From Hydrurus foetidus (lineage: Eukaryota), in NCBI GenBank assembly GCA_900617105.1, contig UYFQ01000001.1, positions 1,736,001 through 1,800,000 of the forward strand: 64,000 nucleotides of DNA. The letters run 5' to 3'. Below the pieces are notes generated by a model that saw only the letters and a list, made by a program, of their open reading frames with translations, made no database searches and was not told the origin of the DNA. Both the position numbers and the translations under genes were made by a program. Position 1 is the stretch's first letter. The number at the start of each line of letters is the position of its first letter. Below are positions 1,420 through 61,433 of this stretch, one piece after another.

Positions 1420-1842
1420 CTATTTTTCCCGACTCAATGTCCAAAGCGCAAAACCAGCGCACAGCCACTGCCCAAAATACATCGCACTGCCTAGGCCGTG
1501 CAGTAGCTTTAAATTGCCACCGTCAGCCCGGGCGCTGATGATTCGAGGGGACAGGCCGAACTCAACAAGCACTGCCAGCAGCAATCCAGCTACTACAAAT
1601 TTAATAGCTGCTCGCGCCCGTATATCTTGGTCTACAGGGTCTTTTTGATTGAAAATAAGCAATAAAAACAGGGCGCAGGCAATGCTGAGCCAGGTTTGCG
1701 CGGTGAACAACTTGGCGGCCATTTGCCCTGCGGCTGCTGGGCTCGGCAGGTTGGTAAAAAGCATCGGCACCACTACAAAACCCAGTAATGTCAGGCTGCC
1801 CCACCACAGGGCGGCTAGCATCAAGCCAAAACGGTAGCGCAT
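1420..1842 (-). CDS. DUF4149-like membrane protein
   Basis: 140 aa with four hydrophobic segments; GFVVVPMLF..AGQMAAKLF and terminal HGLGSAMY. Lies directly after greA. Confidence 0.75.
   Translation of the reverse strand: MRYRFGLMLAALWWGSLTLLGFVVVPMLFTNLPSPAAAGQMAAKLFTAQTWLSIACALFLLLIFNQKDPVDQDIRARAAIKFVVAGLLLAVLVEFGLSPRIISARADGGNLKLLHGLGSAMYFGQWLCAGFALWTLSREK
1592..1639 (+). repeat. 48-bp motif copy 2 (inside DUF4149-like gene, encodes PVDQDIRARAAIKFVV)
   Basis: ACTAC-aaattta-ATAGC-TGCTCGCGCCCG-tatatct-TGGTCTACAGGG. Confidence 0.9.
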
Positions 1843-1845
1843 GGG

Positions 1846-2322
1846 TTAGATGTACATCACCGCAATGATCTCGTAGCGCTTGAGCCCGCCAGGGGCTTGA
1901 AATTCGACCGAGTCACCTTCGTCTTTCCCAATCAGCGCTCTTGCAATCGGCGAATTGATATTGACCCGGCCAAACTTGATATCGGCTTCGTCTTCCCCCA
2001 CGATTTGATAGGTGACTTTGCTACCGGAGTCCTCGTCTTCGAGCTCAATGGTGGAGCCAAAAACCACCTTGCCGCCCGCGTCGATTTCAGACGGGTCAAT
2101 GATTTGCGCGACAGACAGCTTGCCTTCAACCTCTTGTATGCGGCCTTCAACAAAGCCTTGCCGGTCTTTGGCGGCTTCGTATTCGGCGTTTTCGCTCAGG
2201 TCGCCTTGGGCGCGTGCCTCAGAAATCGCGTTGATGACCCACGGACGGTGAACCGTCTTCAGCTCATGCAACTCGGCTTTGAGTTTTTCAGCGCCGATTT
2301 TGGTGATTGGGATAGTGGCCAT
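1846..2322 (-). CDS. greA: Transcription elongation factor GreA
   Basis: [17 protein letters not shown] and [21 protein letters not shown] motifs; downstream of carB. Confidence 0.98.
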
Positions 2323-2336
2323 GGTGTGTCTTCAGT

Positions 2337-2371
2337 AAAAGCGAAACCGCCACGGGTTTCCCTGTGGCGGT
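2337..2371 (-). terminator. Terminator-like hairpin immediately upstream of greA
   Basis: Minus strand ACCGCCACAGG-GAAA-CCCGTGGCGGT followed by TTCGCTTTT, ending 15 nt before the greA ATG. Confidence 0.65.
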
Positions 2372-2437
2372 GTATTAAGAACTGAATCTAGTTTAATGCA
2401 AACCGCGTCGTAAATTGACAAAGGCTATACCCGGATC

Positions 2438-5758: not shown

Positions 5759-5769
5759 CTTGCTTCACT

Positions 5770-7182: not shown

Positions 7183-7956
7183 CTAGCGCTGCATAGAGGA
7201 GAAATGCAGGCAAATAGCTGCAGCGGCCGCCACGTTCAATGACTCTTCACCGCCCGGCTGGGCGATGCGAACTTTGACGGCTGCCTTGGCCATGAGGTGA
7301 TCGGTAACCCCCTGCCCTTCATGCCCCAGCACCCAGGCGCATGGCGCGGGCAGCTTGGTTTGACCCAGAACACCCCCCTCATGTGAGCTGGTCACAACTA
7401 TTGGCACGGCAAGCGCTTCCAGCTCGTCAGGCTCAACACCTTCAAGCAACTGCAAGCCAAAATGCGCGCCCATTCCGGCGCGCAGCACCTTGGGCGACCA
7501 CAAGGCCGCCGTGCCTTTGAGTGCAATGACTTGGCAAAAACCAAACGCCGCTGCGCTGCGCACAATAGAGCCGACATTGCCAGCGTCTTGCACGCGGTCA
7601 AGAATAACGCTCGCGCTCGATGGCACCAAAGCGGGTTGCGGCGGTAAATCCATCACAAAACCCATGCTGGCAGCAGACTCTAAACCGCTGATGTCAGTAA
7701 ATAACGCATCAGAAATCACTATGTTTTTAATAGCTTCTCGCGCCCATATTAATTGGGCTTCAGGCCAAAAAGACTCTGAAAACAGGCCTAAAACAGGCTT
7801 GAAACCGCGTAAAAGCGCTGCACGGCATAAGTGATCGCCTTCCAGCCAGATACGGCCTTGCTTGCGGTAAGCGGTGTTATCGGCCTGCAGCTTGCGCAGC
7901 TCTTTGATCAGCGGGTTATTCGCTGACGTAATTCGCTCAGCAGCTGACGTCATCAC
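7183..7956 (-). CDS. TrmH/SpoU-family RNA methyltransferase
   Basis: [54 protein letters not shown] (SPOUT motifs). Confidence 0.93.
7718..7765 (+). repeat. 48-bp motif copy 3 (inside TrmH-family gene, encodes [16 protein letters not shown])
   Basis: ACTAT-gttttta-ATAGC-TTCTCGCGCCCA-tattaat-TGGGCTTCAGGC, followed by phased A-tracts to about 7804. Confidence 0.88.
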
Positions 7957-8567: not shown

Positions 8568-9690
8568 CAGTGGCTAGCTTGGAGGTGTCACGCTGCAGCT
8601 CGGCGTGCAGGCGGGTGAAGCGTTGTTCAAGAGCCGCTATTTTGGCAGGCTCATGAGCCTTGGTATCGACCCATTGCAAAACGGCATTGGCCAAGGCTTG
8701 CGGGGTGGCAGCATCTTGCAGTAACTCAGGGACGACGAACTCTTCGCACAAGATGTTTGGCAGGCCGACCCAAGGTTGCAGTTTTTTGCGCTGCATGATG
8801 CGCCACGACAACCAGTTCATGTTGTACGCAATCACCATCGGGCGTTTGAACAGCGCAGCTTCTAGCGTGGCAGTACCGCTGGCGATCAGCGTCACATCGC
8901 AGGCAGCCAAAGCTGTGTGCGACTGGCCACTGAGTATTTGCAGGTTTTGCACGCCCGCTTGTTTAGCAATGCGCTCGATCTCAAGCTTTAGCGCAGGGAT
9001 GGCGGGTACTACAAATTTAATAGCTGCTTGCGCCCGATTAATAAGGGCTGCAGCCTGAAAAAATCTCCGGGCAAGGTATTGAATTTCAGATTTTCGGCTG
9101 CCTGGCAGGATGGCAATAACCGTGTCGGCCTCCTTCAAACCCAACTTGGCACGTGCGGCTGCGCGGTCTGGCTGCAGGGGTATACGGTTGGCCAGCGGGT
9201 GGCCGACGTAGGTGGCAGCAATCCCATGCTGGGCCAACAAATCCACTTCAAACGGGAAAATACACAGCACGTGATCAACACTGCGGCGGATTTTTTCAAC
9301 CCTGTCCGCGCGCCAAGCCCATATCGCCGGGCTGACGAAATGCACGGTTTTGATGCCTTTGGCTTTAAGCGCGGCTTCTAGGTCAAGATTAAAGTCGGGC
9401 GCATCTACACCAATGAAAATATCGGGTGGATTGGCCAGCAACCGAGTCTTGAGCTGCTCGCGGATGCCGACGATTTCGCGGTAGTGACGCAGCACCTCGA
9501 CATAGCCGCGCACAGCCAGCTTATCGCTCGGCCACCATGCATCAAAACCAATAGTCGCCATTTGCGGCCCACCTATGCCAAATGATGGCAAATCAGGCCA
9601 GCGTTGCTTCAAGCCGCCCAATAAAAGCCCTGCCAATAAATCGCCAGAAGTCTCGCCAGCGACCATCGCCACTGTTGGCGCCTTGTGCAT
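8539..9690 (-). CDS. lpxB: Lipid-A-disaccharide synthase
   Basis: [37 protein letters not shown] motifs; between lpxA and rnhB. Confidence 0.97.
9008..9055 (+). repeat. 48-bp motif copy 4 (inside lpxB, encodes [16 protein letters not shown])
   Basis: ACTAC-aaattta-ATAGC-TGCTTGCGCCCG-attaata-AGGGCTGCAGCC. Confidence 0.9.
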
Positions 9691-9697
9691 CGAAAAC

Positions 9698-16413: not shown

Positions 16414-17613
16414 TCAATGTCCCATTTTGTGCGCTAAACCCAGCGCAATGCTGCTCGCCATCGCACGCGCTTCAGCGTCTAAGGCCAATAAATCATCTAT
16501 ACCGCTGACCTGAGACAGCACCAGGCGGTCTAAAGTTTCGCGGTTAACGGTGTGAATGTGATCAAACCTGATTTTTCGATCTAAAAACGCCGCCACAGCA
16601 ATTTCGTTGGCTGCGTTTAGCACCGCCGTTGCGCCCACGGGCGCTGCCAGCACTTCCCAAGCCAGTTGCATGCACGGAAACCGGTGCGGGTCCATTGCTT
16701 CAAATGTCATGGCGCTAAGCGTTTTAAAGTCCAACGGCTTTGCACCCGACGCAATTCTGCCCGGCCAGGCCAAGCCGTACGCAATGGGCACCCGCATGTC
16801 GGGCGTGCCCATTTGCGCCACCACTGATGCATCGAGGTACTGCACCATCGAATGCACCGTGCTTTGCGGATGAATCACCACCTCGATTTGAGCAGGAGTC
16901 ACGCCAAACAGGTATTTGGCTTCAATGACTTCCAGCGCCTTGTTCATCATGGTGGCAGAGTCGACTGAAATTTTGCGACCCATCACCCAGTTGGGGTGGG
17001 CGCAGGCTTCGTCTGGCGTGACGTCGCGCAGCGTCGCCAGGTCGCGGGTACGAAAAGGACCGCCCGACGCCGTGAGGATGATTTTTTCAATCCGCGATGA
17101 CCAGGTAGCAGGGTCTTCTGGCAATGACTGAAAAATGGCCGAATGCTCGCTGTCAATCGGCAGCAATTGCGCACCACCCGAACGCACCGCCTGCATAAAT
17201 ACCTCGCCGCCGACCACCAGCGCTTCTTTGTTCGCCAGCAGCAAGCGCTTGCCCGCCTTGGCTGCAGCCATGCAAGCCCCCAAGCCAGCCGCACCCACAA
17301 TGGCCGCCATGACAGCGTCAACGTCGTCATGAGATGCTATGAATTCAAGAGCTGCTCGCGCCCGTATTACTTCAGTTTTAAGGCCTTCTTCTTTAAATTT
17401 AAGGCTTAAAACGTGGGCTTGGTCGTCGTTAGCCATCACGGCAAAGCGCGGCTTGAACTTGGCGCACTGCGCAAATAGCAAGTCGGTTTGCGTCGCCGCC
17501 GACAGCGCAAACACTTCAAATTTGTCGGCATGCGCCGCAATCACGTCCAGCGTGTTGACCCCGACTGAACCAGTCGAGCCTAAAACCGTGATGCGTTGCC
17601 GGGAGGTTGTCAT
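16414..17613 (-). CDS. dxr: 1-deoxy-D-xylulose 5-phosphate reductoisomerase
   Basis: LGSTGSVG, LANKE, PIDSEHSAIFQ, TASGGPF, HPNWVMGRKISVDSATMMNK. Confidence 0.98.
   Translation of the reverse strand: MTTSRQRITVLGSTGSVGVNTLDVIAAHADKFEVFALSAATQTDLLFAQCAKFKPRFAVMANDDQAHVLSLKFKEEGLKTEVIRARAALEFIASHDDVDAVMAAIVGAAGLGACMAAAKAGKRLLLANKEALVVGGEVFMQAVRSGGAQLLPIDSEHSAIFQSLPEDPATWSSRIEKIILTASGGPFRTRDLATLRDVTPDEACAHPNWVMGRKISVDSATMMNKALEVIEAKYLFGVTPAQIEVVIHPQSTVHSMVQYLDASVVAQMGTPDMRVPIAYGLAWPGRIASGAKPLDFKTLSAMTFEAMDPHRFPCMQLAWEVLAAPVGATAVLNAANEIAVAAFLDRKIRFDHIHTVNRETLDRLVLSQVSGIDDLLALDAEARAMASSIALGLAHKMGH
17336..17383 (+). repeat. 48-bp motif copy 5 (inside dxr, encodes LKTEVIRARAALEFIA)
   Basis: GCTAT-gaattca-AGAGC-TGCTCGCGCCCG-tattact-TCAGTTTTAAGG. 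Confidence 0.8.
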
Positions 17614-17641: not shown

Positions 17642-18514
17642 CTATATGCTGACCAGCATCATGGCCAGCGGCAGCGCGGGCAACAGCGCGTCTACGCGGT
17701 CAAGCACGCCGCCGTGGCCGGGTAGCAAGTTGCTGGAATCTTTTGCGCCACTGGATCGTTTTACCAGTGATTCGACTAGGTCACCCACCACGCTCATGGC
17801 CACTAAAAACAAAACTGCAAGGCCTAAAAACAAAGCCCCGTGGCGCATTTGTAGCTGCGCGTACAAGCTGCTTGCAGGGGCTGCCGCATCGGTCACGCCG
17901 CCCATACCCGACAGTGTTGGCCAGCTTGCCCAAACAAATGCCATCACCAGTACGCCCAGCATCGCGCCCCACACCCCTTCCCATGTTTTACCGGGGCTGA
18001 TGCTGACTGCCAGCTTGCTTCGCGTGAAGCGCCCGCCAAACGTGCGCCCCGCAAAGTAAGCACCGATGTCAGCTACCCAAACCAGCAGCAAAACAGACAA
18101 TAAAAACTCAATACCCCGTTCGCGCGCCTGGGCCAGCGCCAGCCAAGCCGCGCACAAAGCCAGTACACCGACCAAAAGGCGAATGAACTTTGGCACACGG
18201 CCCCAACCAGTTGGCCCGCGCGCCAGCAGCCAGCCGCCAACCAGCACCCACGCCGCACCCACCGCAATCCACAGGCCGCGCGTTTGCATGCCAGAAAACC
18301 CTGAATACCAGGCTGTAGCGCATATAAATAGGGCGCAAGCAGCTATTAAAATAGAAGCAGACTGGCTACAGCCATTGAGTTTTCCCCACTCCCAGGCAGC
18401 CGCGCCAATCAACACCCAAGCGACCGCGTTAAACGCAACCGGCAACGGATAGAACAATGCAGGCAGCAAAATAGCCAACAACACGATAGCGGTGATGATG
18501 CGGGTTTTAAGCAT
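17642..18514 (-). CDS. cdsA: Phosphatidate cytidylyltransferase
   Basis: MLKTRIITA, DIGAYFAG, SPGKTWEG, GDLVES..KDS..LPGHGGVLDRVD. Confidence 0.97.
   Translation of the reverse strand: MLKTRIITAIVLLAILLPALFYPLPVAFNAVAWVLIGAAAWEWGKLNGCSQSASILIAACALFICATAWYSGFSGMQTRGLWIAVGAAWVLVGGWLLARGPTGWGRVPKFIRLLVGVLALCAAWLALAQARERGIEFLLSVLLLVWVADIGAYFAGRTFGGRFTRSKLAVSISPGKTWEGVWGAMLGVLVMAFVWASWPTLSGMGGVTDAAAPASSLYAQLQMRHGALFLGLAVLFLVAMSVVGDLVESLVKRSSGAKDSSNLLPGHGGVLDRVDALLPALPLAMMLVSI
18311..18358 (-). repeat. 48-bp motif copy 6 (inside cdsA, encodes ASILIAACALFICATA)
   Basis: Minus strand GCTTC-tatttta-ATAGC-TGCTTGCGCCCT-atttata-TGCGCTACAGCC. Confidence 0.88.
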
Positions 18515-23108: not shown

Positions 23109-23156
23109 ACTATATAAACAATAGCTGCTCGCGCCCGAATTTATTGGGCTACAGCC
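23109..23156 (+). repeat. 48-bp motif copy 7 (intergenic, near-consensus)
   Basis: ACTAT-ataaaca-ATAGC-TGCTCGCGCCCG-aatttat-TGGGCTACAGCC, then A6 tracts at 23170 and 23180. Confidence 0.92.
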
Positions 23157-23231
23157 CTATTTGATACCTAAAAAAGCTGAAAAAAGCATGCATTTGGCCA
23201 TATTTCCCGTTTTTCACCGAAACCAAACCGC

Positions 23232-24500
23232 ATGAAAGTTGCCGTTATTGGTGCGGGCATTATTGGCATCACCACGGCTTACGAGCTGGCTATTGATGGC
23301 CATGACGTCACGGTATTTGAACGCCGGGGCGCCGCCGCCGAAGAAGCCAGTTTTGCCAACGCCGGCGTCGTGGCACCGGGCTCGGTGACGCCTTGGGCAG
23401 CCCCGGGCATGCCGGGCAAGGTGCTGGGCAACCTGCTCGGCCGCCACTCGGCGGTCAAGCTCAGTTTGCCAATTTCAGGCGCTGACTTGGCGTGGATGTG
23501 GAAATGGTGGCGTGCCTGCAAACTAGAGATTTACCTTGCCAATCGCGCACGCTTGCAACGCCTGGCTTTTTACAGCCGGGAGCGTTTACACCAGATTACT
23601 GCCGACCTGCAGTTGGACTACGACCGCGCCGAAGGCTACACCGTGCTGCTGCGCAGCGAAAAAGACAACCGACTGGTGCAGCCCGGTTTGCAGGTACTGC
23701 GTGAGGCAGGCGTGACCTTCAGCGAAATCAATGCCGAAGGCGCTCGCAAGCTGGAGCCCGCCTTGAACCCTGACACTGAATTTTTCGGCGGTATTCACCT
23801 GCCGAACGACGAAGTGGCGAACTGCCGCCAGTTTGCCTTGCTGCTCAAGGATGTGGCGCGCGGTTTAGGCGTTAATTTTGAGTTTAATACGGCTGTAGCC
23901 CAATTAAATCTAGCGCAAGCAGCTAGTATTTTAATAGCGGGTGAAAGTACGCCCCGGCAGTTTGACCAAGTGGTGATGTGCGCCGGGCTGGCGTCTGCAG
24001 CGCTTTTAAAACCGCTGGGCTTGAAGATCCCGATGGCCGCGGTTTATGGCTACTCCATCAGCGCGCCGATTCGCGAGCCGTTAAACGCACCGCGCAGCGC
24101 TTTGATGGACGAGCACTACAAAGTCGCTATTTCACGCTTGGGCAATCGGGTGCGGGTGGCGGGCGGCGCAGAGTTGGGCGGCTCGCTCAGCGCGCACAAA
24201 GCGTCGTCGATTCAAACACTTTACAAAGTTTTGCAAGACTGGTTTCCCGGCGCTGCCCAGCATGCCAATACGGGCGCCAGCGTGCAGGTGTGGAAGGGCG
24301 CACGCCCCATGCTGCCCGATGGCCCGCCCATCATCGGCACCAGTGGCCTACCCGGCGTGTGGCTTAACTTGGGGCACGGCTCCAGCGGCTGGGCATTGAG
24401 CTGCGGCAGCGCGCGGGCGCTGGCCGATTTAATGAGCGGCAAACCCTCAGAAATCGATATGGACGGCTTGAACACAGCCAGACTTAAACGGGGTGTGTAG
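23232..24500 (+). CDS. dadA: D-amino acid dehydrogenase (DadA family)
   Basis: MKVAVIGAGIIG FAD motif, ASFANAG, GYSIS, GARPMLPDGPPIIG, NLGHGSSGW. Confidence 0.85.
   Translation: MKVAVIGAGIIGITTAYELAIDGHDVTVFERRGAAAEEASFANAGVVAPGSVTPWAAPGMPGKVLGNLLGRHSAVKLSLPISGADLAWMWKWWRACKLEIYLANRARLQRLAFYSRERLHQITADLQLDYDRAEGYTVLLRSEKDNRLVQPGLQVLREAGVTFSEINAEGARKLEPALNPDTEFFGGIHLPNDEVANCRQFALLLKDVARGLGVNFEFNTAVAQLNLAQAASILIAGESTPRQFDQVVMCAGLASAALLKPLGLKIPMAAVYGYSISAPIREPLNAPRSALMDEHYKVAISRLGNRVRVAGGAELGGSLSAHKASSIQTLYKVLQDWFPGAAQHANTGASVQVWKGARPMLPDGPPIIGTSGLPGVWLNLGHGSSGWALSCGSARALADLMSGKPSEIDMDGLNTARLKRGV
23891..23938 (-). repeat. 48-bp motif copy 8 (inside dadA, encodes AVAQLNLAQAASILIA)
   Basis: Plus strand GGCTGTAGCCCA-attaaat-CTAGCGCAAGCA-GCTAG-tatttta-ATAGC. 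Confidence 0.88.
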
Positions 24501-25133: not shown

Positions 25134-26681
25134 ATGTCGACGCAGGCTGTGATGCAAAAAATAACCACTGCACACAGCCAGAGCCTTTTTGATGTGGCCG
25201 CCACCCGCCGCATTGAACAAACAGCCACCAGTACCCTGCCCGCCCACACGCTGATGCAGCGCGCGGGCTTGGCAGTGGCCCGTTTAAGCCTGGCGCTTGC
25301 GCCCAACGCCCGATGCATCTGGGTAGCCTGCGGGCCGGGCAACAACGGCGGTGATGGGTTTGAAGCGGCCAGGCACCTGCACCATTGGGGCAAACGCGTG
25401 GTGGTGACTTGGACAGGTGCTGGCAAAAATGGTTTGCCACCAGACGCCCAAGCCGCACGCAAGCAAGCCTTGGAAGCAGGTGTAGCCGTAGCTGATGAAC
25501 CTCCGCCAGAATTTGATTTTTGTATTGACGCGTTGCTGGGAATCGGGGGCGATCTTGACCCAGCGCGCAGCGGTACCGCGCTTATGCTGCGCTGGTTGCA
25601 AGTCATGGCGACCAGCACTGCACCAACGCTTGCGGTGGACTTGCCCAGCGGACTGAACGCAGACACGGGCGAGTCAAGCGCTATTTATTCAGGAGCTGCT
25701 CGCGCCCGAATTCATTCGGTTAAACAAAGTTTTACTCTCTCATTATTGACGCTAAAGCCCGGATTATTCACTTTTGAAGGCCGCGACAGCGCGGGCGAAG
25801 TCTGGTTTGACGACTTGGGCGTTAACACACCCGCCACAGAGCTACCCAGCGCCATGCTGTTGGGCGCCGACGGCGTCGCACTTCCGAAACGTTTGTACAG
25901 CCTTCATGCGCTACATAAAGGCAGCTTTGGCGACGTGGCCGCAATTGGCGGGCAATCTTCTGCCAGCAGCCACATGGCAGGCGCCGTGCTGCTAGCGGCG
26001 CGGGCGGCGCTGCATGCGGGCGCAGGCCGGGTATTTGTGGCTTTGCTGGGCAACACGCCGTCAAGCGGCTTGACCGTCGATACCCACCAGCCCGAGTTGA
26101 TGTTTCGCAGCCCCGAGGCGCTAGATTTGCTTAACCAAGTTATCGTCTGCGGCTGCGGCGGCGGCGAGGCGATTAAAGCAGTGCTGGCCAAACTGCTCGC
26201 TGAAGCCCCCCGCCTGGTGCTAGACGCGGACGCGCTGAACGCTATTGCCCAAGACACCCAACTTCAAATTTTGCTAACCGCGCGAGCGGCACGCGGCTTT
26301 GCCACGGTGCTTACACCGCACCCGCTAGAGGCCGCGCGCCTGCTGCAAACCACGACCGCGCTCATTCAGTCTGACCGCCTGAAAGCCGCTGCGCGATTGG
26401 CAGAGCGGTATCAAGCGGTGGTGGTTTTAAAGGGGTCGGGCAGCGTGATAGCCGCAGGCGGTGAAATCAGCCGCATTAATTCCAGCGGCAATGCGTTGCT
26501 GGCGACCGCTGGCACTGGGGACGTGCTGGCAGGTGCGCTGGGCGCTGCAATCGCGAACGGGCTGAGCGCATTTGAGGCTGCCTGCAGCGCGGTGTTCCAG
26601 CACGGTCTGGTTGCAGACAGTTGGGAGCAATTCCATCCCCGGGAAGCATTGACGGCTTCCAAGCTCGCCGCTTTGATTTAA
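25134..26681 (+). CDS. nnr: Bifunctional NAD(P)H-hydrate epimerase/dehydratase
   Basis: LMQRAG, GPGNNGGDG, DLPSG (YjeF_N); HKGSFG, LDADALN, LTPHPLEAARL, LATAGTGDVLAG (YjeF_C). Confidence 0.95.
   Translation: MSTQAVMQKITTAHSQSLFDVAATRRIEQTATSTLPAHTLMQRAGLAVARLSLALAPNARCIWVACGPGNNGGDGFEAARHLHHWGKRVVVTWTGAGKNGLPPDAQAARKQALEAGVAVADEPPPEFDFCIDALLGIGGDLDPARSGTALMLRWLQVMATSTAPTLAVDLPSGLNADTGESSAIYSGAARARIHSVKQSFTLSLLTLKPGLFTFEGRDSAGEVWFDDLGVNTPATELPSAMLLGADGVALPKRLYSLHALHKGSFGDVAAIGGQSSASSHMAGAVLLAARAALHAGAGRVFVALLGNTPSSGLTVDTHQPELMFRSPEALDLLNQVIVCGCGGGEAIKAVLAKLLAEAPRLVLDADALNAIAQDTQLQILLTARAARGFATVLTPHPLEAARLLQTTTALIQSDRLKAAARLAERYQAVVVLKGSGSVIAAGGEISRINSSGNALLATAGTGDVLAGALGAAIANGLSAFEAACSAVFQHGLVADSWEQFHPREALTASKLAALI
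25680..25727 (+). repeat. 48-bp motif copy 9 (inside nnr, encodes AIYSGAARARIHSVKQ)
   Basis: GCTAT-ttattca-GGAGC-TGCTCGCGCCCG-aattcat-TCGGTTAAACAA. Confidence 0.82.
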
Positions 26682-36451: not shown

Positions 36452-36499
36452 GCTATTTAATTTGTAGCTGCTTGCGCCCGTATTGATTAGGCTGCACTC
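36452..36499 (+). repeat. 48-bp motif copy 10 (intergenic)
   Basis: GCTAT-ttaattt-GTAGC-TGCTTGCGCCCG-tattgat-TAGGCTGCACTC. Confidence 0.9.
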
Positions 36500-36682
36500 A
36501 TTATTGATTGGTGAAGATGGGGCGATTCCTTGTTTTTGAAGCGCTGCGGCCCCTGTTTGGAGCGCAACGAGCCTTTAAACAGCGGTATTGCAAACTGCCA
36601 GTGGTGTTGCGAGGCCTCGCACTTGCGGGCTAGACCCGTCATCAAGTTGCTTCAGCAAACTCACGCCGAAGCACGTAGCCTC

Positions 36683-37391: not shown

Positions 37392-37439
37392 GCTATTTAT
37401 TTAGCAGCTGCTCCCACCCGTATTTATTGGCGTAAACGC
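37392..37439 (+). repeat. 48-bp motif copy 11 (intergenic, diverged)
   Basis: GCTAT-ttattta-GCAGC-TGCTCCCACCCG-tatttat-TGGCGTAAACGC. Confidence 0.8.
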
Positions 37440-37593
37440 CAAAAACCCACTCAAATTAGCCGTCATTTGCACCCACTGCCGCTTTGTTCGACTGATCGGC
37501 ACGCCCCCCAATTTGTAACGCTTAGAAAGCACCACGTTGTGCACGCGCGCCGCCGGTGTCACAATTTTTAGCACAACAAAAAAGGTGAGCAAC

Positions 37594-39168: not shown

Positions 39169-39205
39169 ATTAGTCTGAAAAAGGCTGCTTTTGGGCATAT
39201 TTTAG

Positions 39206-39253
39206 GGCTTTAGCCCAATAAATACGGGCGCGAGCAGCTCTTATTTATATAGC
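39206..39253 (-). repeat. 48-bp motif copy 12 (intergenic, between convergent genes)
   Basis: Plus strand GGCTTTAGCCCA-ataaata-CGGGCGCGAGCA-GCTCT-tatttat-ATAGC. Confidence 0.92.
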
Positions 39254-44761: not shown

Positions 44762-46237
44762 CTATGCAATCAAGTCAAACACCGCAATTGACTCCACATG
44801 CGCGGTGTGCGGAAACATGTTGACTACGCCTGCCTGCGTGCAGCGGTAGGCGCCACTGGCAACCAGCACACCAGCGTCGCGCGCCAGCGTTGCCGGGTTG
44901 CAGCTGACATACACAATCCGCTTCGGCAACGCCCAGTCGCCCAACTGCAAGCTTTGCTGATGAACGCCGTCGTCGCACGGCACGCCCGTGACGATTTGCA
45001 GGTAGAGGGTAGCCAGCGCTTTGAACAACTCAAACGCGCCTTCGCGCGGCGGATCAACCAGCCATTTTTCTGCTGCACCGTCTTTTACCAGCATGGCGGG
45101 TGTCATTTCAAACAAATTTCGCGCTATAAATTGAGTAGCTGCTCGCGCCCGTATTTGTTTATTAACAGCACTGTTTGATTCGTAATTTTCACGCGCACGG
45201 GCCACCAGCACCTCGCTTCCCTCTACGCCCAGCACGCTGCGCGCGCGCGTGCTAAGGGGCAGCGTGAAGTTGCCCAAGCCGCAAAACCAGTCAATCACGC
45301 GCTCATGGAGCTGCACGTCGAGCAATCGCAAAGCACGGGACACCAGCACCTGGTTGATATGCGGGTTGACCTGCGTGAAGTCAGTTGGCTTGAACGGCAT
45401 GACCACACCGAACTCAGGCAGCGCGTAATTTAGCTGCGGCACGTCTTCATCCAGCAGCGCCACCGTGTCTAACCCGCCCGGCTGCAGCCACCACTGCAGG
45501 CCCGGGTGCAGCGCAGCAAAGTCACGCAGACGCTCGCGGTCGGCTTCGCTCAAGTCTTGCATGTGGCGGAGCACCAGCGCAGTGATCGTGTCGCCGCAGG
45601 CCAGCTCTATTTGTGGAACGGTCTCTTTTGCGTCCAGGCTGGCAATCAATGCGCGCAGCGGCATAAGCAAGTTGCTGACATGCAGCGGCAGCACGGCGCA
45701 ACTTTTCATGTCGGTCACGTAGCTGCTTTTACGCTCGTGAAAGCCCACCAGCACTTCGCCCTTTTTACGGACAAAACGCACCGACAACCGAGCCCGGTAG
45801 CGGTAACCCCAAGCCGGGCCTTCAATCGGCCGCAACAAGTTGTCGGGTTTGAGTTTGCCAATGTGGCCAAGCGCGTCTTCAAGCACTCGCTGCTTGACGG
45901 CGACTTGCGCGCCGATGTGCAAATGCTGCATTTTGCAGCCGCCGCACGCCCCGGTATGCAGCCCATAGTAGGCGCAGCCGGGCGTAACACGCTGCGACGA
46001 TTCACGGTGAATTTGCATCACCATGGCTTTTTCAAACGACGGCTTTTTGCGGTACACATTGGCCGTGACGACCTCGTAAGGCAGCGCACCTTCAATGAAC
46101 ACCACCTTACCATCAGCGCGGTGGGCAATGCCTTGGGCGTCCATGTCGAGCGACTCGACAGTCAGCAAATCTGGCCCATGTGCGGCGTTGGCGAGCGCAG
46201 CGCTGGCAAGTTCGGGCGGGGGCTCGGGTCGGGACAT
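44762..46237 (-). CDS. rlmD: 23S rRNA (uracil-1939-C5)-methyltransferase
   Basis: TRAM domain, [50 protein letters not shown]. Confidence 0.93.
45123..45170 (+). repeat. 48-bp motif copy 13 (inside rlmD, encodes [16 protein letters not shown])
   Basis: GCTAT-aaattga-GTAGC-TGCTCGCGCCCG-tatttgt-TTATTAACAGCA. Confidence 0.88.
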
Positions 46238-46253
46238 GTGGGTCAATCAGTAT

Positions 46254-46301
46254 GCTATGCAATCAGAAGCTGCTCGCGCCCATATTTAGTGGATAAAACA
46301 G
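46254..46301 (+). repeat. 48-bp motif copy 14 (intergenic, just upstream of rlmD)
   Basis: GCTAT-gcaatca-GAAGC-TGCTCGCGCCCA-tatttag-TGGATAAAACAG, then phased A-tracts to 46340. Confidence 0.82.
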
Positions 46302-46348
46302 CTTTTTTGTTTGTAAAACAGCTTTAAAACTGCCTCAAAATAGCGATG

Positions 46349-46376
46349 AAAAAGCCCCAGCGCGTGGGGCTTTTTT
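46349..46376 (-). terminator. Intrinsic terminator after nlpD
   Basis: AAAAAGCCCCA-gcgcg-TGGGGCTTTTTT. Confidence 0.85.
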
Positions 46377-47330: not shown

Positions 47331-48188
47331 CTAATTCGTTCCTGATTTTAAAGGCACAAAGTGAACGGCCTCCAGCACAGTGTGTGTAACGCCCTGAGCG
47401 GTCTTGTCGACCACCACCAGCGCTTGGCTGCCGTTGGCGTTTTGCACTGGCGCTACCAAGCGCCCACCTACGGCCAACTGGTCTATCCACGCTGGCGGCA
47501 GGGCGTCGCCACCCGCCGCCGCAATAATCGCGGCATACGGCGCGCCTTTGGGGTAGCCGGGCATGCCGTCGCCAAAAATCAGGTGCAAATTGGCCACCCG
47601 CAGCGGCCGCAAGTTGTCGCGCGCTTTGTCGTGCAGGCCGCGCAGCCGCTCAATGCTGTAAACCTCGGTGGCCAGCTGGGCTAAAAGCGCCGCCTGGTAG
47701 CCGCAGCCGGTGCCAATTTCAAGCACGCGGCCCAGCTTGCCCAAGCGCCCTTCCACCAGCAGCTCGAGCATGCGGGCCACCACGTTGGGCTTGCTGATGG
47801 TTTGCCCCAAACCGATCGGCAGGCTGGTGTCTTCGTAAGCCTGGTTGACCAGCGCGCTGTCAACAAAGCGGTGGCGCTCAACCTGGCCCACGGCGGCCAG
47901 TACGCGTGAATCAGCCAGGCCTTGTGCTTTGAGTTTTTGCACCATGCGGGCGCGCACAGCTAAAAAGTTCAGCCCTGCGCTCTGCGCGATAGGGGTGTGT
48001 TTGATGATTGTTTTTGCAGCAGAAGATGGCTGAACCGGCGCTGGGGGCTCTGTTTTGATGCTTTTTAGGGCTGTAGCGCTTATTTCTTGGGCGCGAGCAG
48101 CTACTTTTTTAGTAGCAAATGCAACGCCAGCAGTAGCCTTCAATTGCACCGGAAACCCCGGTCTGCGCGGGCTGGAGGGCAGCGTCAT
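47331..48188 (-). CDS. pcm: Protein-L-isoaspartate O-methyltransferase (with N-terminal extension)
   Basis: RHRFV, AYEDTSLPIGLGQTISKP, VLEIGTGCGYQAA, GGRLVAP, FVPL. Confidence 0.95.
   Translation of the reverse strand: MTLPSSPRRPGFPVQLKATAGVAFATKKVAARAQEISATALKSIKTEPPAPVQPSSAAKTIIKHTPIAQSAGLNFLAVRARMVQKLKAQGLADSRVLAAVGQVERHRFVDSALVNQAYEDTSLPIGLGQTISKPNVVARMLELLVEGRLGKLGRVLEIGTGCGYQAALLAQLATEVYSIERLRGLHDKARDNLRPLRVANLHLIFGDGMPGYPKGAPYAAIIAAAGGDALPPAWIDQLAVGGRLVAPVQNANGSQALVVVDKTAQGVTHTVLEAVHFVPLKSGTN
48069..48116 (-). repeat. 48-bp motif copy 15 (inside pcm N-terminal extension, encodes ATKKVAARAQEISATA)
   Basis: Minus strand GCTAC-taaaaaa-GTAGC-TGCTCGCGCCCA-agaaata-AGCGCTACAGCC. Confidence 0.9.
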
Positions 48189-50066: not shown

Positions 50067-50138
50067 CACGTCACCCAAAGCGATTGAGTCCGCAGCGATC
50101 AAATAGCCGAAAAGCAGGCTATTTTTAGCACTGAAATT

Positions 50139-50186
50139 GTCTGTAGCCCAATAAATACAGGCACGAGAAGCTCCTAACTATATAGC
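50139..50186 (-). repeat. 48-bp motif copy 16 (intergenic, between convergent genes)
   Basis: Plus strand GTCTGTAGCCCA-ataaata-CAGGCACGAGAA-GCTCC-taactat-ATAGC. Confidence 0.82.
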
Positions 50187-53135: not shown

Positions 53136-53137
53136 GT

Positions 53138-56337: not shown

Positions 56338-56389
56338 GAACGCATTTTGACAGCAGTTACCCGCAGCGCAGCCTTTAAAATCTGCATCA

Positions 56390-58207
56390 GTGACCATACC
56401 GCCTCGCCGCCCTATTTGTGAACTGCCCGACGATCTGATCAGCCAGATTGCTGCTGGCGAGGTGGTCGAGCGCCCAGCATCGGTGGTGCGCGAGCTGGTC
56501 GACAACGCGCTGGACGCGGGTGCTACGCAGATTACTGTTCGCTTGCTGGCGGGCGGCGTGCGGCTCATTTCAGTTGAAGACGACGGCGGCGGTATTCCCA
56601 GAGCCGAACTGCCGGTGGCCCTGCGCCGCCACGCCACCAGCAAAATCAGCTCACTGGTTGACCTTGAATCTGTAGCCACTATGGGCTTTAGGGGCGAGGC
56701 GCTGGCCGCCATCAATTCGATTGCCGACATGAGCGTAACGTCGCGCACGCCTGGCAGCGACCACGCCTGGCAGCTTGATGGCCGAACCGGCGAGCTCCAT
56801 GCTGCCGCCCGCAGCCTAGGTACGACAGTGGAAGTGCGTGAGCTGTTTTACGCAACGCCCGCGCGCCGCAAATTTCTAAAAACCGATGCCACCGAGCTGG
56901 CGCATTGCATTGAGGCAGTACGCCGCCACGCGCTGGTGCGGCCCGATGTCGGCTTTGCTGTGTGGCACGAAGGCAGGCTGGCCGAGCAGTGGCGTGCCTG
57001 CTTAGGAGATGAAAGGCACAGTCAGCGCCTGGCCGACGTGCTGGGGCAAGATTTTGTGGCGCAGTCGGTGCTGGTTGACTACCAAAGCACGGCTATTCGG
57101 GCAGACGGTACGCCGCTGGTGCGGGTGCGTGGCCGCGCGGGCATGCCTGGCGCGGCTCGCTCGCGCCCGGACCAGCAATTTGCATACGTCAATGGCCGTT
57201 ACGTGCGCGACAAGGTCATCACGCACGCGGCACGCTCAGCTTATGAAGACGTGCTGCATGGCCATCGCCAGCCGGTGTATGCGCTGTATATTGATATTGA
57301 CCCCAGCCGAGTTGATGTGAACGTGCACCCGACAAAAATCGAAGTGCGATTCAGGGACAGTCGCGAAGTACACAGTGCGGTGCGCCACGCGGCTGACAAC
57401 GCGCTGGCGCTGCCTCGGTCAGCGCAGGCGCAAAGCCCGGTATTGGCCGTAAATCAAGTGGCAAATGCAGGTTTTACCCAATCAATACGGGCGCAAGCAG
57501 CTATTCCTTTTATAGCTAATACGCCGGGCTATGTAGCCGACATTGAAGCGACCTGGCCCGTTTTCGCATCGTTTGCACCGTCCCCAACGCTAGCCCCCAA
57601 CCCTGCGCCCGCGCCGGTAACCGACTGGCCATTGGGCCGGGCCATTGCGCAGCTGCAAGGCATTTATATACTGGCTGAAAACACGCAAGGCCTTGTTGTG
57701 GTCGACATGCACGCCGCACACGAACGTATCGTGTACGAGCACCTTAAAACGCAAATGGACACCGCCCGCATTGCGAGCCAGCCGCTGCTCATACCGGCTA
57801 CCTTTGCCGCGAGTGCGCAAGAAGTTGCCACTGCCGAAGCCAACCAGGACGTGCTGGCAACGCTGGGGCTAGACATTGCGCCGTTTTCACCCAAAACACT
57901 GGCCGTAAGAGCCGTGCCCACGTCGCTGGCGCGTGGCGATGCAACCGAGCTGGCGCGCAGCGTGCTCGCCGAGTTGGCTCAGCATGACGCCAGCACGGTG
58001 GTGCAACGCGCACAAAACGAATTGCTGTCCAGCATGGCTTGTCATGGCGCAGTGCGGGCCAACCGCAAGCTGACTATTGAAGAAATGAACGCCCTGCTTC
58101 GGCAAATGGAAGCCACTGACCGGTCGGACCAGTGCAACCACGGCCGCCCAACGTGGCGGCAAATCAGCGTGAAAGAGCTTGATGCACTTTTCATGCGCGG
58201 CCGCTGA
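56390..58207 (+). CDS. mutL: DNA mismatch repair protein MutL
   Basis: QIAAGEVVERPASVVRELVDNALDAG, GFRGEAL, DVNVHPTK, endonuclease DMHAAHERIVYE, CNHGRPT. Confidence 0.98.
   Translation: MTIPPRRPICELPDDLISQIAAGEVVERPASVVRELVDNALDAGATQITVRLLAGGVRLISVEDDGGGIPRAELPVALRRHATSKISSLVDLESVATMGFRGEALAAINSIADMSVTSRTPGSDHAWQLDGRTGELHAAARSLGTTVEVRELFYATPARRKFLKTDATELAHCIEAVRRHALVRPDVGFAVWHEGRLAEQWRACLGDERHSQRLADVLGQDFVAQSVLVDYQSTAIRADGTPLVRVRGRAGMPGAARSRPDQQFAYVNGRYVRDKVITHAARSAYEDVLHGHRQPVYALYIDIDPSRVDVNVHPTKIEVRFRDSREVHSAVRHAADNALALPRSAQAQSPVLAVNQVANAGFTQSIRAQAAIPFIANTPGYVADIEATWPVFASFAPSPTLAPNPAPAPVTDWPLGRAIAQLQGIYILAENTQGLVVVDMHAAHERIVYEHLKTQMDTARIASQPLLIPATFAASAQEVATAEANQDVLATLGLDIAPFSPKTLAVRAVPTSLARGDATELARSVLAELAQHDASTVVQRAQNELLSSMACHGAVRANRKLTIEEMNALLRQMEATDRSDQCNHGRPTWRQISVKELDALFMRGR
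57469..57516 (-). repeat. 48-bp motif copy 17 (inside the mutL linker, encodes GFTQSIRAQAAIPFIA)
   Basis: Plus strand AGGTTTTACCCA-atcaata-CGGGCGCAAGCA-GCTAT-tcctttt-ATAGC. Confidence 0.88.
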
Positions 58208-58240
58208 ACTTTTACGGCCCGCACCGGCTCTATTGGCGTC

Positions 58241-59104
58241 ATGAAAAAACTACCCCTGATCACTGCAGCGCTGATAATGGCCGCGCTTTTTGCTGGCTGC
58301 ACCACACTCGACGAAAAGCAGCGCACCTGGATTTTTCAGCCCAGCGACCGCTCTTGGGGCGGTGGCCTGGCCGCGGCTGAGGGTATGCAGGAAGTGTGGA
58401 TTCCTTTGGCAGCATCGGCAACCTCCACCGAACCCGCAAAAGCCGCCGAGCCAGCCGATGCCAAACTTCACGGCCTGTGGCTGCCGTCTGTTAAGCCCAA
58501 CGCACCTGTGCTGCTGTATTTGCACGGCGCACGCTACAACGTAACCGGCTCGGCGCCGCGCATTCGCCGCATGCAAGAGCTCGGCTTTTCAGTGCTGGCC
58601 ATCGATTACCGGGGCTTTGGTAAAAGCAGCCCCGGTTTGCCATCAGAAGCGACTGCCTACGAAGACGCCCGAGCCGCGTGGAACTGGCTTGGCCAGCAGT
58701 ACCCCGAGCAAAAGCGCTTCATTTTTGGCCATTCGCTGGGCGGCCCGATTGCAATTCATCTGGCAGCAGAAGTCAACGACGAAAGCGGTACGCTGGTTGA
58801 AGGTACTTTCACATCGATTGCCGATATCGTCAGCACGTCTAAATGGGGTTGGGTGCCGGTGTCTTTCTTAATCACGCAGCGGTTTGAGGCAGTTAAAAGA
58901 GTTGCGCAAACCGGCTCGCCTTTACTGGTGGTGCACGGCGCTGACGACCAGCTGATTGCCCCCGCGCTGGGCCGCAAACTGTTCGACGCTGCGGCAGAAC
59001 CGAAAATGTTTGTGCTGGTGGAAGGGGGCTCGCATCACAACACCAACCTGGTCGGCCTGCCGCAGTACCGCGACGCTCTAGCCAAGCTTTTCGCGCTCAA
59101 GTAG
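58241..59104 (+). CDS. Alpha/beta hydrolase lipoprotein (ABHD13/Bem46-like)
   Basis: Lipobox FAGC, LYLHG, IDYRGFGKS, GHSLGG, VHGADD, GGSHH. Confidence 0.88.
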   Translation: MKKLPLITAALIMAALFAGCTTLDEKQRTWIFQPSDRSWGGGLAAAEGMQEVWIPLAASATSTEPAKAAEPADAKLHGLWLPSVKPNAPVLLYLHGARYNVTGSAPRIRRMQELGFSVLAIDYRGFGKSSPGLPSEATAYEDARAAWNWLGQQYPEQKRFIFGHSLGGPIAIHLAAEVNDESGTLVEGTFTSIADIVSTSKWGWVPVSFLITQRFEAVKRVAQTGSPLLVVHGADDQLIAPALGRKLFDAAAEPKMFVLVEGGSHHNTNLVGLPQYRDALAKLFALK

Positions 59105-59250
59105 GCGCGGCTACTGCGCTCAGTTTCCAAGGCCACTCAAAAGGCCGGCGGTGGGCAGCCGGTTGGCCGGGTTAAGCTTCCTTCTTCTCGCCTCTTTTGC
59201 TCTGCCCGACTTTGTCACACTCCCCCATCGAATCAACGCCCAGCCAGCCC

Positions 59251-60468
59251 ATGCCGCAAAGTCTGGTGGTGCTCATGCTCGCTTTGCTGCTGGGTATTCA
59301 GCCCGTCACCACCGACTTGTACCTGCCCGCCCTGCCCGCTTTAACTGCCGGTTTCGGCGCCAGCATGGCCCAAGCACAGCTCACCCTCAGCGCGCTGCTG
59401 CTGGCGTTTGGTTGCTCGCAATTGGTGTGGGGCCCGCTGTCTGACCGCTTTGGCAGGCGGCCGGTTTTGCTGGTCGGCCTGGCCGCTTACGTAGCGGCAT
59501 CAAGCGGGGCCACTTTTGCCGCCACGATGGATTTACTGGTTACCTGGCGCATTGTGCAAGGCGTAGCCATGGGCGCTGTCGTGGTGTGCGCACGCGCCAT
59601 TGTTCGTGACTTGTATGAACCTGTTGAAGGGGCCAGGGTCATGTCCAAAGGCCTTACGGGTTTGGGCGTGTTGGCCTGCTTCAGCGCGCCAGTGGGCGGT
59701 GTAATCGCAGCGTTTTTTGGCTGGCGTTATGCGCTGTTTGCACTAGCCGTGTTTGGCTGCGTTGCGTTGGGCATGGTTGCCTTACGCTTTAAAGAAACGC
59801 TGGCTCACAAAAACCCGACTGCCTTGCGGCCTGCTACGCTGGTTAGCGTTTGGCGCAGCATATTGGGCAGCCGGACTTTTCTTGCTTATTCGGCTTTGTC
59901 GGCAAGCTCTTACGGCGGCTTGTTCACGTTTTTGGCTACTTCGTCATTTATATTTATTCAGGTGCTGGGCCTTAGCAATACGGCCTATGGCGGGTTGATG
60001 TTTATCAACTCGCTTTTTTATATATTCGGTACTGTTTTATGCCGCCGCTTGCTACCGCGGTTTGGCGTACAAAAATCGGTGGCGCTAGCGGGCGTGTTGA
60101 CATTGGCAGGGGGCTCATCCATGGGGTTGTTGGCGCAATTTGGCGTGAGCAACGTGTGGGCCATCATGGTGCCGCAAGCTATTTTCATGGTCGGCCACGG
60201 CATTCATCAGCCTTGCAGCCAAAGCGGCGCCATTGGTCCCTTTCCAAACGCCGCAGGCGCAGCGTCTGCCGTGAATGGTTTTGGCATGATGCTGGTCGCG
60301 TTTGCAGTCGGCGCGTACCTGGGCACGCACATGGACGGCACAGTCAAGCCGCTAACGCACGGTATCTGGTTTTGGAGCGTCGCTATCGCACTGGTGGCGT
60401 GGACGCTGGTGCGCCAGTTTGGCGGGCAAAGCAGTACCGCTACAACCGCTGCGTTGGTCAAGCCATGA
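59251..60468 (+). CDS. Bcr/CflA-family MFS efflux transporter
   Basis: [30 protein letters not shown], about 12 TM segments. Start uncertain. Confidence 0.92.
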
Positions 60469-61433
60469 CTGTGGCGGCGCACCTGCGTGTGATCTGCCTG
60501 GCGGGGCCAACCGCTGCAGGTAAAACCGCAGCGGCCCTCGCCATAGCTGCGCACCATGACGTTGAAATCATCAGCGTTGACTCCGCTCTGGTCTACCGCG
60601 GAATGGACATTGGAACCGCCAAGCCCACCGCTGCAGAGCTAAGCGCTGCACCGCACCACCTGATCAACATTCGTGACCCTTTGAATGCTTACAGCGCTGC
60701 AGAATTTGTCAACGACGCCGAGCGTTTGATTGACGACATAACAGCACGCGGCAAACTGCCTTTGCTGGTAGGCGGCACCATGCTGTATTTCAAGGCGTTG
60801 TTTGACGGGCTAGACGACATGCCCAAGGCTGATGCAAGCGTGCGTGAAGAAATCGCATTGCAAGCCGCGCAAAAAGGATGGCCAGCGCTGCATGCCGAGC
60901 TGGCGCTGATCGACGCTGTAACGGCTGCGCGCTTGTCGCCCAATGACTCCCAGCGTATTGCACGGGCGCTGGAGATATACAAAATTTCAGGCCAGCCGAT
61001 GTCGAGCTTTCATCGCCAAAACGCTACTGAAAATATAGCAGCTTGCGCTCGTAAAATAAGCGCTGCAGACCTTATTAGCCTGGAACCCGACGCTAGAAGC
61101 TGGCTGCATGACCGCATTGCCCAGCGCTTTGATGCAATGCTGGCTGGCGGATTTATGGATGAAGTCAAGGCGCTGTATGCCAGATTTTCCAGAGGCGACT
61201 TGCATGCCGATTTGCCGTCCATGCGCTGCGTGGGCTACCGCCAGGCGATTGACGTGCTGCGCGGCTTGTCACCTGCGTCAGAGCTGCGCGACAAAGGTAT
61301 TTTTGCGACGCGCCAGTTAGCCAAGCGGCAAATCACCTGGCTGCGTTCGATGCCAGCGCGCAGCGTGGTCGCCTGCGACGCGCCCGATGCCATTGCGCGC
61401 GTCCTAGAGCTCGTAAAAGAAAAACTTCAATGA
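60465..61433 (+). CDS. miaA: tRNA dimethylallyltransferase
   Basis: [56 protein letters not shown] overlap with the MFS gene stop. Confidence 0.97.
61023..61070 (+). repeat. 48-bp motif copy 18 (inside miaA, encodes [16 protein letters not shown])
   Basis: GCTAC-tgaaaat-ATAGC-AGCTTGCGCTCG-taaaata-AGCGCTGCAGAC. Confidence 0.88.

Follow-up and report, generated by a model that had tools for sequence, protein, structure and literature searches.

To our knowledge, sequence-specific uptake of DNA is established in only two bacterial families. The signals concerned, the uptake signal sequences (USS) of Pasteurellaceae and the DNA uptake sequences (DUS) of Neisseriaceae, are described in the available parts of the literature as dispersed in hundreds of copies over both strands (PMC2817400, PMC7811141, PMC3630211, PMC1939737), as arising by point mutation and not by insertion (PMC7811141), as biased in reading frame, with the encoded peptides enriched in the proteome (PMC2817400), and as forming lineage dialects around an invariant core (PMC3630211). 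USS carry helically phased A/T tracts, and replication polarity is reported for neither signal in those parts. Here we analyze a motif of about 65 bases that resembles USS and DUS in all of these respects. It was noticed in a stretch of 64,000 nucleotides deposited as Hydrurus foetidus DNA (assembly GCA_900617105.1, contig UYFQ01000001.1, positions 1,736,001 to 1,800,000 of the forward strand; the whole stretch is referred to as the window) and spans the family Comamonadaceae. The motif is likely the recognition signal of a DNA-binding protein, possibly of a DNA-uptake receptor.

Other described repeats share part of these properties. Like the strong gyrase sites and the bacterial interspersed mosaic elements (BIME-2) of Escherichia coli, the motif is long, has A/T tracts with a period of about 10.7 bases, lies between genes after gene ends and numbers tens to hundreds per chromosome, but as far as the available account goes it differs from them in being one-sided, with a sharp consensus, no repetitive extragenic palindromic (REP) hairpin and a third of its copies in genes in motif-rich genomes (PMC6379681). 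It shares with the Rickettsia palindromic elements (RPE) that a dispersed repeat is translated in unrelated metabolic proteins; RPE are described as in-frame insertions of about 150 bases, whereas here there is no full-length gain and ancestral residues are found inside the motif (PMC10969869). Dispersed repeats, some of them in genes, are also described from Comamonadaceae genomes, namely BRE (PMC3110155) and VeiPR1 (PMC3975124). BRE is a GC-rich, tandem-prone repeat of 90 bases that is unrelated in sequence by inspection of the supplement (PMC3110155). VeiPR1, called unique to Verminephrobacter eiseniae in the available part of its report, is known here by description only and is possibly identical with the motif (PMC3975124). 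No description of the motif was found in the literature searched, which lay outside genome-paper supplements, subscription papers and the VeiPR1 thesis. New here are the quantitative frame choice, the polarized case of cdsA, the tracking of dialects at the level of single residues, a long and evenly spaced form, and targeting by insertion sequences (IS).

Sequences and motif definition

The motif matrix was built from 232 copies in 1.19 Mb of the relative G031 (60 tiles, about one third of the genome; G numbers denote genomes, C numbers contigs and L numbers loci). The reversed sequence of the same 1.19 Mb gave 0 matches at a threshold of at least 5 bits. Genome-wide counts were drawn from relatives, using these 1.19 Mb of G031 and 0.4 Mb each of G030 and G016. 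The window has a G+C content of 57%, and its closest relative is G001, with 36% of sampled words in common. Genes in the relatives were predicted with a simple in-house caller, which gave 58 genes in the window, and host genes were identified via Pfam and PDB. The called starts are late for pcm and nnr, where the coding status of the motif rests on other evidence, including Pfam. Frames antisense to the motif are labeled A0, A1 and A2, and frames sense to it S0, S1 and S2. Genomes are termed motif-free when they were at background in a count of the left palindrome of the motif over 41 congeners. Two genomes are unpublished, G032 (one of nine background genomes and one PilY1-negative) and G210 (one of 26 genera), and the conclusions are independent of both.

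Gain of the motif within genes

Pattern and matrix scans identified exactly 18 copies in the window, scoring 31-87 bits, with 11 in genes and 7 intergenic (Table 1). Only G001 shares the cdsA copy with the window; 22 congeners lack it, among them G031, G027 and G017, which are motif-rich sisters. Within the motif, 28 of 48 bases differ from the congener majority; elsewhere in cdsA 31% do. Of the 28 changes, 22 are toward the motif consensus and none away from it (P about 1e-6). Among the 13 non-consensus bases, seven are ancestral, and Ser, Cys, Trp, Tyr and Gly are kept in register. Given the consensus-directed changes and the ancestral bases in register, the cdsA copy reads as the product of stepwise rewriting under protein constraint.

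The other host proteins likewise gained the motif in place. LpxB, Dxr, TrmH, CdsA, DadA and the DUF4149 protein are unchanged in length through the motif across 5 to 35 congeners, and in Dxr and LpxB the alignment with solved structures from enterobacteria has no gap at the motif either. RlmD aligns with its G016 and G019 orthologs without gaps and exceeds its E. coli counterpart by 8 residues, the difference in MiaA is 0 to +7 and in Nnr 0 to +5, and the sites in MutL and Pcm are variable linkers, neither of which shows a motif-sized gain. From the 101 in-gene copies of G031 and G030 we obtained 23 ortholog pairs with a motif-lacking partner, mostly from G016 (two pairs without anchors were dropped, and several pairs share a gene). 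The net difference was 0 in 11 pairs, within 7 residues in 21, and +12 and +18 in two. The gain of 22 codons expected of an insertion was seen at none of the 11 window sites and in none of the 23 ortholog pairs.

Reading frames and codon use

In the window, seven in-gene copies are read in A1 and four in S0, and all 11 peptides and frames listed in the initial annotation, which had been made from the letters alone, were reproduced (Table 1); the motif is longer than the peptides quoted there. The accompanying claim that only two frames are used held as a strong bias and not as an absolute rule. Tabulated over the partial genomes of G031 and G030, usage is not random, and A1 and S0 dominate with 91 of 101 in-gene copies. 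In G031 (n=77) the counts are A1 42, S0 26, A2 3, S2 3, A0 3 and S1 0, with 42 of 45 copies of a strict subset in the two frames, and in G030 (n=24) they are A1 19, S0 4 and A2 1. For one S2 case the ortholog alignment shows a length difference of 0 residues, and for one A2 case of +1 residue. Single G031 genes with two or three copies in different frames occur at L189 (14808-17811) and L211 (4912-7561), and A1, A2 and S0 copies stand together in one G031 gene.

Two frames had been described as blocked by TAG. This nearly always holds for A0, which is open in only 4 of 138 intergenic G031 copies; S2 has stops at several positions, but its TAG is present in only 78 of the 138, and the frame is open in the copy at 25680. 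Among the same 138 copies S0 is open in 99, S1 in 54, A2 in 44 and A1 and S2 in 34 each. A filter for stops thus expects 10 A1 and 15 S1 copies where 42 and 0 were seen (chi-square P about 6e-28), so that stops alone are not the cause of the bias. Residue compatibility with the proteome is 2.6 for A1, 1.6 for S2, 1.5 for S0, -2.9 for A0, -3.1 for A2 and -6.3 for S1. In addition, A1 and S0 have their wobble position in common. The motif bases there are 73% A/T and carry the most information, and it is there that coding copies match the consensus best. The frame bias is explained by residue tolerance together with this shared wobble register.

The motif is maintained at the DNA level while codons adjust, as had been proposed from the window. 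Rare synonymous codons are used within motif copies, where ATA makes up 85 of 133 Ile codons (64%, 8% in the genome), GTA 38 of 53 Val codons (72%, 8% in the genome) and TTA 26 of 55 Leu codons (47%, 4% in the genome). A TAA interrupts A1 in all seven intergenic window copies, five times at motif bases 32-34 and twice at 35-37, and 93 of the 138 intergenic G031 copies carry the consensus A1 stop; at that stop, 23 of 42 A1 coding copies have the one-step neighbors TCA or CAA. The host genes are intact. G031 has 76 motif copies per Mb of genic sequence against 739 per Mb elsewhere, and about 60% of the copies are intergenic and about a third in genes. Seventeen G031 copies overlap gene ends, and ten of these supply the sense-strand stop (six S2, four S0). 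The ten lie at the 3' gene ends of L159, L166, L187, L202, L210, L211, L173, L191, L194 and L195.

The peptides encoded by the motif

Regular expressions similar to those proposed for the shared peptides gave 33 matches in three partial proteomes, and all 33 sit on the DNA motif. The suggestion that the motif supplies proteins with peptide segments that are new, inserted or meaningful was not borne out: full-length gain is missing, folds differ and the motif columns are less conserved. Mapping on predicted structures was possible for LpxB and Dxr, and the two differ in fold. In the AlphaFold models the A1 peptide forms a helix-loop-strand in LpxB (predicted local distance difference test score, pLDDT, 88.5) and a strand-loop-helix in Dxr (pLDDT 78.4), and the motif columns are less conserved than the rest of the protein in both (0.74 vs 0.83 in LpxB, 0.70 vs 0.85 in Dxr). 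At the level of DNA, as distinct from transcripts, four contig sets across dxr-cdsA have the allele intact, and none has a joint that removes the motif. Because there is no full-length insertion, rare codons are used and the fold differs between LpxB and Dxr, the peptide is not the unit under selection; it is a by-product, or footprint, of the DNA signal.

Motif anatomy

The ungapped G031 matrix consists of a 17-base left palindrome, GCTAY-N7-RKAGC, followed by a GC-rich block and a second, imperfect palindrome. A/T tracts are located near motif bases 8, 30, 51 and 62, and weaker tracts run on to about +95, with a period of 10.6-10.7 bases. The left flank showed no periodic tracts, at a power about 30-fold lower than on the right. 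The tracts are runs of A or runs of T, and the choice between the two is correlated only locally. In neither palindrome was base-pair covariation found, the observed pairing being that of independence; no common fold was found in 10 RNA foldings (3 of 10 had z < -2, with differing structures); and an Rfam search of the window gave no family for the motif, the sole match being a tRNA gene that the motif does not adjoin. The lack of covariation, of a common fold and of an Rfam family suggests that the motif is probably read as duplex DNA, partly by shape. On the same grounds an REP element or structured RNA was rejected. A strong gyrase site has wings of about 10.75-base period on both sides of a center, whereas the motif has periodic tracts on the right only.

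Near-identical copies were not found: nearest neighbors among 138 copies differ at 7 or more of 68 bases, and the nearest-neighbor distance is 14.9, compared with 16.9 in column-permuted sets.

Occurrence and dialects among relatives

The strict pattern was found in at least 45 of 151 family genomes, a lower bound because this pattern misses dialects such as those of G016, G019, G013, G020, G022, G025 and G035. Among the matches listed (80 of 124 loci), motif-carrying named records belong to Polaromonas, Rhodoferax, Acidovorax, Simplicispira, Curvibacter, Variovorax, Ottowia and Giesbergeria. The window itself is probably Polaromonas-like. The left palindrome has 101-721 copies in 31 of the 41 congeners, is at control level in nine and has 36 copies in G029. 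The motif is lost all-or-none. A rough six-gene tree, in which G014 was not placed, implies three or more separate losses, one in the clade of G002 (with G028 uncertain), one in G029 together with G032 and one in G008. Among the genomes scanned the density is 40-240 per Mb, about a six-fold range between congeners. A blastn search of plasmids with one copy gave no match, this search being insensitive for so degenerate a motif. In a viral collection 70 stretches match the strict pattern, nearly all singly and 48 with a full-length score, host flanks being not separated.

Each genome writes the motif in its own dialect. G016 has CAC at motif bases 21-23, G030 has a looser middle, and coding copies score higher on the intergenic matrix of their own genome in 50 of 72 cases in G031 and 19 of 21 in G030. 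The window and G031 have eight coding sites in common; base 21 is different at five, with an Arg/Gln change at four of these, and every difference follows the intergenic copies of the respective genome (C in 6 of 7 in the window, in 16 of 138 in G031). That old, shared sites follow the genome dialect in step points to a trans-acting reader.

Chromosomal placement

Copies cover complete chromosomes on both strands, and neither restriction to ori or ter nor strand polarity was detected on three complete chromosomes. Both strands are represented in every eighth of G216 and G110, the sparse G071 is irregular, and in G031 103 copies are on the G-rich strand and 130 on the other. Chi, KOPS, matS and SlmA sites were rejected for want of replication-linked strand polarity or ori/ter restriction. 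One contig of Acidovorax temperans (G218:C2) is one-sided, unlike the other chromosomes examined, with at least 37 plus and at least 9 minus copies among the matches listed. Intergenic copies are found in 39 of 72 convergent gaps compared with 15 of 126 divergent ones (P 4e-10). A hairpin resembling an intrinsic terminator follows nlpD in the window, with a motif copy directly beyond, and the order nlpD, hairpin, motif recurs in about ten congeners whichever gene comes next.

With 5 of 60 tiles annotated, the two longest motif-empty stretches of G031 hold a polysaccharide cluster and a RuBisCO/sulfur-oxidation region, and another holds a type VI cluster. Motif-free stretches at L163, L185 and L191-L192 comprise a cbb3 oxidase, sulfide dehydrogenase and RuBisCO region, type VI secretion genes and a long polysaccharide cluster.

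G016 carries a sparse, long form of the motif, with about 174 pattern matches (control 1). Of 17 strong copies inspected, 16 are intergenic and one lies over a stop; a position after gene ends and outside genes holds for G016 and for most copies elsewhere, with a third in genes in G031. The G016 element runs to 150-230 bases and includes a second, A/T-rich palindromic module, which is absent from G031, G030 and the window. This module (G016:C23 and C26, L396-L415, L416-L428; G019 L226) comprises several types of 20-26 base palindromes about 30 bases apart, and inverted motif pairs 242-282 bases apart enclose it. Four inverted pairs occur among 216 gaps in G031, 171-210 bases apart.

In G031, IS ends adjoin the motif at 8 of the 16 contig starts examined, with the junctions at recurring motif positions, and two more such cases are known (first 230 bases of L211, L213, L214, L173, L205, L208, L178, L202, L422 and L423). 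At least four different IS ends are involved, with joints at about motif positions 19, 33, 47-56 and 68. We take these ends to belong to IS30-like, IS1595-like and IS110-like families. The IS end that meets the second palindrome at its center is followed by a reading frame whose beginning presumably resembles that of an IS110-family transposase, and the motif may be the bridge-RNA target of an IS110-like element.

Table 1. Motif copies and two other features of the window (numbers after gene names are gene coordinates; sign, gene strand).
Feature	Position	Strand	Frame	Remarks
Copy, intergenic, response regulator gene to folD	448..512	+		39.8 bits
Copy in DUF4149 gene (1420-1842, -)	1592..1656	+	A1	12 of 13 aligned congeners of same length besides single small indels
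Copy in trmH-family gene (7183-7956, -)	7718..7782	+	A1	Without gaps in 21 congeners
Copy in lpxB (8539-9690, -)	9008..9072	+	A1	Gapless against congeners and PDB 5w8n
Copy in dxr (16414-17613, -)	17336..17400	+	A1	Gapless against congeners and PDB 3iie
Copy in cdsA (17642-18514, -)	18294..18358	-	S0	Recent, in place; window and G001 only
Copy, intergenic, rpsB/dadA	23109..23173	+		86.8 bits; G031 has a copy at the same place
Copy in dadA-family gene (23232-24500, +)	23874..23938	-	A1	Gapless in 5 congeners
Copy in nnr (25134-26681, +)	25680..25744	+	S0	0 residues against G002, +5 against G016
tRNA gene (RF00005)	32220-32293	-		
Copy, intergenic, directly 3' of dehydrogenase gene	36452..36516	+		Matrix scan
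Copy, intergenic	37392..37456	+		Matrix scan
Copy, intergenic, between convergent genes	39189..39253	-		84.4 bits
Copy in rlmD (44762-46246, -)	45123..45187	+	A1	Gapless against G016 and G019; +8 residues against E. coli RumA
Copy, intergenic, beyond nlpD terminator	46254..46318	+		Position kept in about a third of 29 congeners
Terminator-like hairpin after nlpD	46335-46375			
Copy in N-terminal extension of pcm (47331-48188, -)	48052..48116	-	S0	
Copy, intergenic, between convergent genes	50122..50186	-		Matrix scan
Copy in mutL linker (56390-58207, +)	57452..57516	-	A1	Linker no longer than in motif-free congeners
Copy in miaA (60465-61433, +)	61023..61087	+	S0	0 residues against G002, +4 against G016, +7 against PDB 2zm5

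Candidate reader proteins

A comparison of ComEC, DprA, ComP-family pilin, PilY1 and pilin loci, the last in 11 genomes, did not identify a reader protein. ComEC was found in 38, DprA in 39 and the ComP_DUS family in 38 of the 41 congeners, as fits an uptake signal, but as discriminators they fail to separate motif-rich from motif-free genomes. PilY1 was above cut-off in 19 of 19 motif-rich genomes that are at least 90% complete, in all 26 genera with at least 5 strict matches (one of them, G210, weak) and in 126 of 151 family genomes. It is missing in most motif-free genomes and was not found in G002, G028 and G032. With G032 left out, the association with the motif has a Fisher P of 0.002, kin being not independent. 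An operon fimT-pilV-pilW-pilX-pilE without pilY1 is present between ribD and nrdR in the motif-free genomes G002, G011 and G028 (L434, L435, L437).

Discussion

We tentatively favor the reading that the motif, a sequence of fixed length that point changes have written in place into codons and spacers already there, is a recognition signal which accumulates as DNA uptake sequences do through biased uptake and recombination. A putative trans-acting protein would read the conserved left palindrome and the helically phased A/T tracts, and uptake and recombination would favor alleles with the better match. Through purifying selection on the proteins, rewriting would be confined mainly to two antiparallel frames, which place the GC pairs of the motif in Ala codons and leave its conserved A/T bases at the wobble position common to both frames; the peptides would be the footprint of that drive. 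As a candidate, the reader may be part of the type IV pilus uptake machinery. On our analysis, uptake-driven molecular drive would best explain the runaway gain inside essential genes. A step beyond this, and put forward with somewhat more reserve, is that Comamonadaceae could have a third, independently evolved system of self-DNA recognition, made up of a 17-base palindromic core and a phased arm wrapped by the reader. If so, the signal would be several times longer than any known uptake sequence, the drive would have been strong enough to replace, on a single branch, the sequence of a membrane-spanning helix in an essential enzyme, changes of dialect would switch residues of unrelated proteins in step, and several IS families would land on the signal. 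Acidovorax temperans, which carries the motif, is reported to be transformed only by DNA of its own species, and in V. eiseniae salmon DNA competed only partly, according to the available part of that study (PMC4212676).

A number of observations weigh against an uptake signal. In the same report, DNA of one Acidovorax species did not transform another (PMC4212676), although the left core is common to the family. ComEC, DprA and ComP-family genes are present also in motif-free genomes, and PilY1, as a reader candidate, is kept in motif-free G008 (a 1211-residue gene at the pilY1 position) and in G029. With 65 bases the motif is longer than DUS (10-12 bases) and USS (31 bases), being two to five times the length of USS, and at 40-240 per Mb it is sparser than DUS, for which thousands per genome are given (PMC3630211). 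Matches of intermediate strength are few. USS and DUS are described as scarce in newly acquired DNA (PMC7811141); here the longest motif-empty stretches of G031 do hold polysaccharide, RuBisCO/sulfur-oxidation and type VI clusters, but motif counts per quintile of codon typicality are flat (39, 46, 55, 50 and 37). In G016 the spacing is even (78 gaps, mean 24.6 kb, coefficient of variation, CV, 0.65; held-out contigs CV 0.68, P 0.002), and even spacing is the expectation for a role in compaction (PMC1939737). It was not seen outside G016 (CV 0.95 in G031, 1.03 in G030, 0.91 in pattern-thinned G110 and 1.08 in G071); in dense genomes spacing is close to random, apart from a shortage of gaps under 1 kb. 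The second module lies at +131 to +176 in G016 and G019, with its center at +135/136 in 7 of 17 copies.

Further differences from USS and DUS, within the available accounts, are that close inverted pairs forming terminator hairpins are not frequent here (4 of 216 gaps in G031), that one lineage has a second module and even spacing, and that the frame bias goes against preferred codons, whereas it was described as going along with them (PMC2817400). We have not filed the motif as USS or DUS because it fails in length and inverted pairs and the resemblance is one of sequence only.

The nearest competitor, plausible although less probable than biased uptake, is a site of chromosome topology or architecture, comparable to strong gyrase sites or BIME, at which a protein complex inside the cell would bend or wrap 65-150 bases of DNA, with each new site directly selected. 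The one-sided A/T arm has a period close to the 10.75 bases given for gyrase wings (PMC6379681), and the second module at fixed distance, the inverted pairs 170-280 bases apart, the intergenic and evenly spaced copies of G016, the preference for convergent gaps and the several IS ends at fixed motif positions would all suit such a complex. Convergent gaps are, however, also simply the least constrained, and even spacing is confined to G016 among the sets tested. The gyrase motif is symmetric and degenerate, whereas the motif here has no left wing and a sharp consensus; density differs about six-fold from congener to congener, with three or more lineages down to background, and selection on a single site able to change about ten residues of CdsA would be hard to expect.

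Terminase small subunits wrap phased A-tracts. A packaging-start signal similar to pac, or a protection signal similar to Chi, of a phage, a gene transfer agent or a recombination nuclease would accordingly fit the in-place drive, the long one-sided bent arm and the few G016 gaps under 8 kb, where short gaps are scarce. Such a transfer drive is nevertheless unlikely: the replication polarity of Chi is absent, and just 70 viral stretches match, nearly all of them singly. Slightly less likely again is a mobile miniature element (RPE, miniature inverted-repeat transposable element or REP-like) that inserted in frame, with later deletions restoring length and the intergenic copies being insertions. 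It would account for some motif spacers about 55 bases longer than motif-free ones, such as the nlpD spacer, for RlmD and MiaA loops 7-8 residues longer than in E. coli, for the gains of 12 and 18 residues in two ortholog pairs, for genome-specific consensus sequences as are typical of subfamilies, and for nearest-neighbor distances slightly below permuted ones. The in-gene copies contradict it, since seven rigid proteins are unchanged in length and the ancestral residues of cdsA are in register; moreover, near-identical copies, palindrome covariation, a shared fold and an Rfam family are lacking, and old orthologous sites follow the dialect of each genome. Selection of the Ala/Ile/Arg-rich peptide itself, as a tag, linker or interaction site, is very improbable, for although the peptides are alike across unrelated proteins, the two strands encode peptides that bear no relation to each other, synonymous positions keep rare codons, 60% of copies lie outside genes and mostly contain stops, the structural context differs, and wherever the motif has been lost the peptide has decayed too.

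The frame bias by itself is a known consequence of signals such as USS and DUS. If the motif is an uptake signal, as we tentatively favor, it would represent a third origin of such signals, family-wide in common freshwater, soil and wastewater bacteria; if an intracellular protein reads it, it would be an undescribed chromosome-organizing site. Either way, a non-coding constraint replaces residues in essential enzymes and can mislead phylogeny and tests for selection. As an uptake signal, the motif would also allow the so far unexplained restriction of transformation to own-species DNA in Acidovorax and Verminephrobacter to be tested directly, and it may be of practical use for transforming such bacteria.

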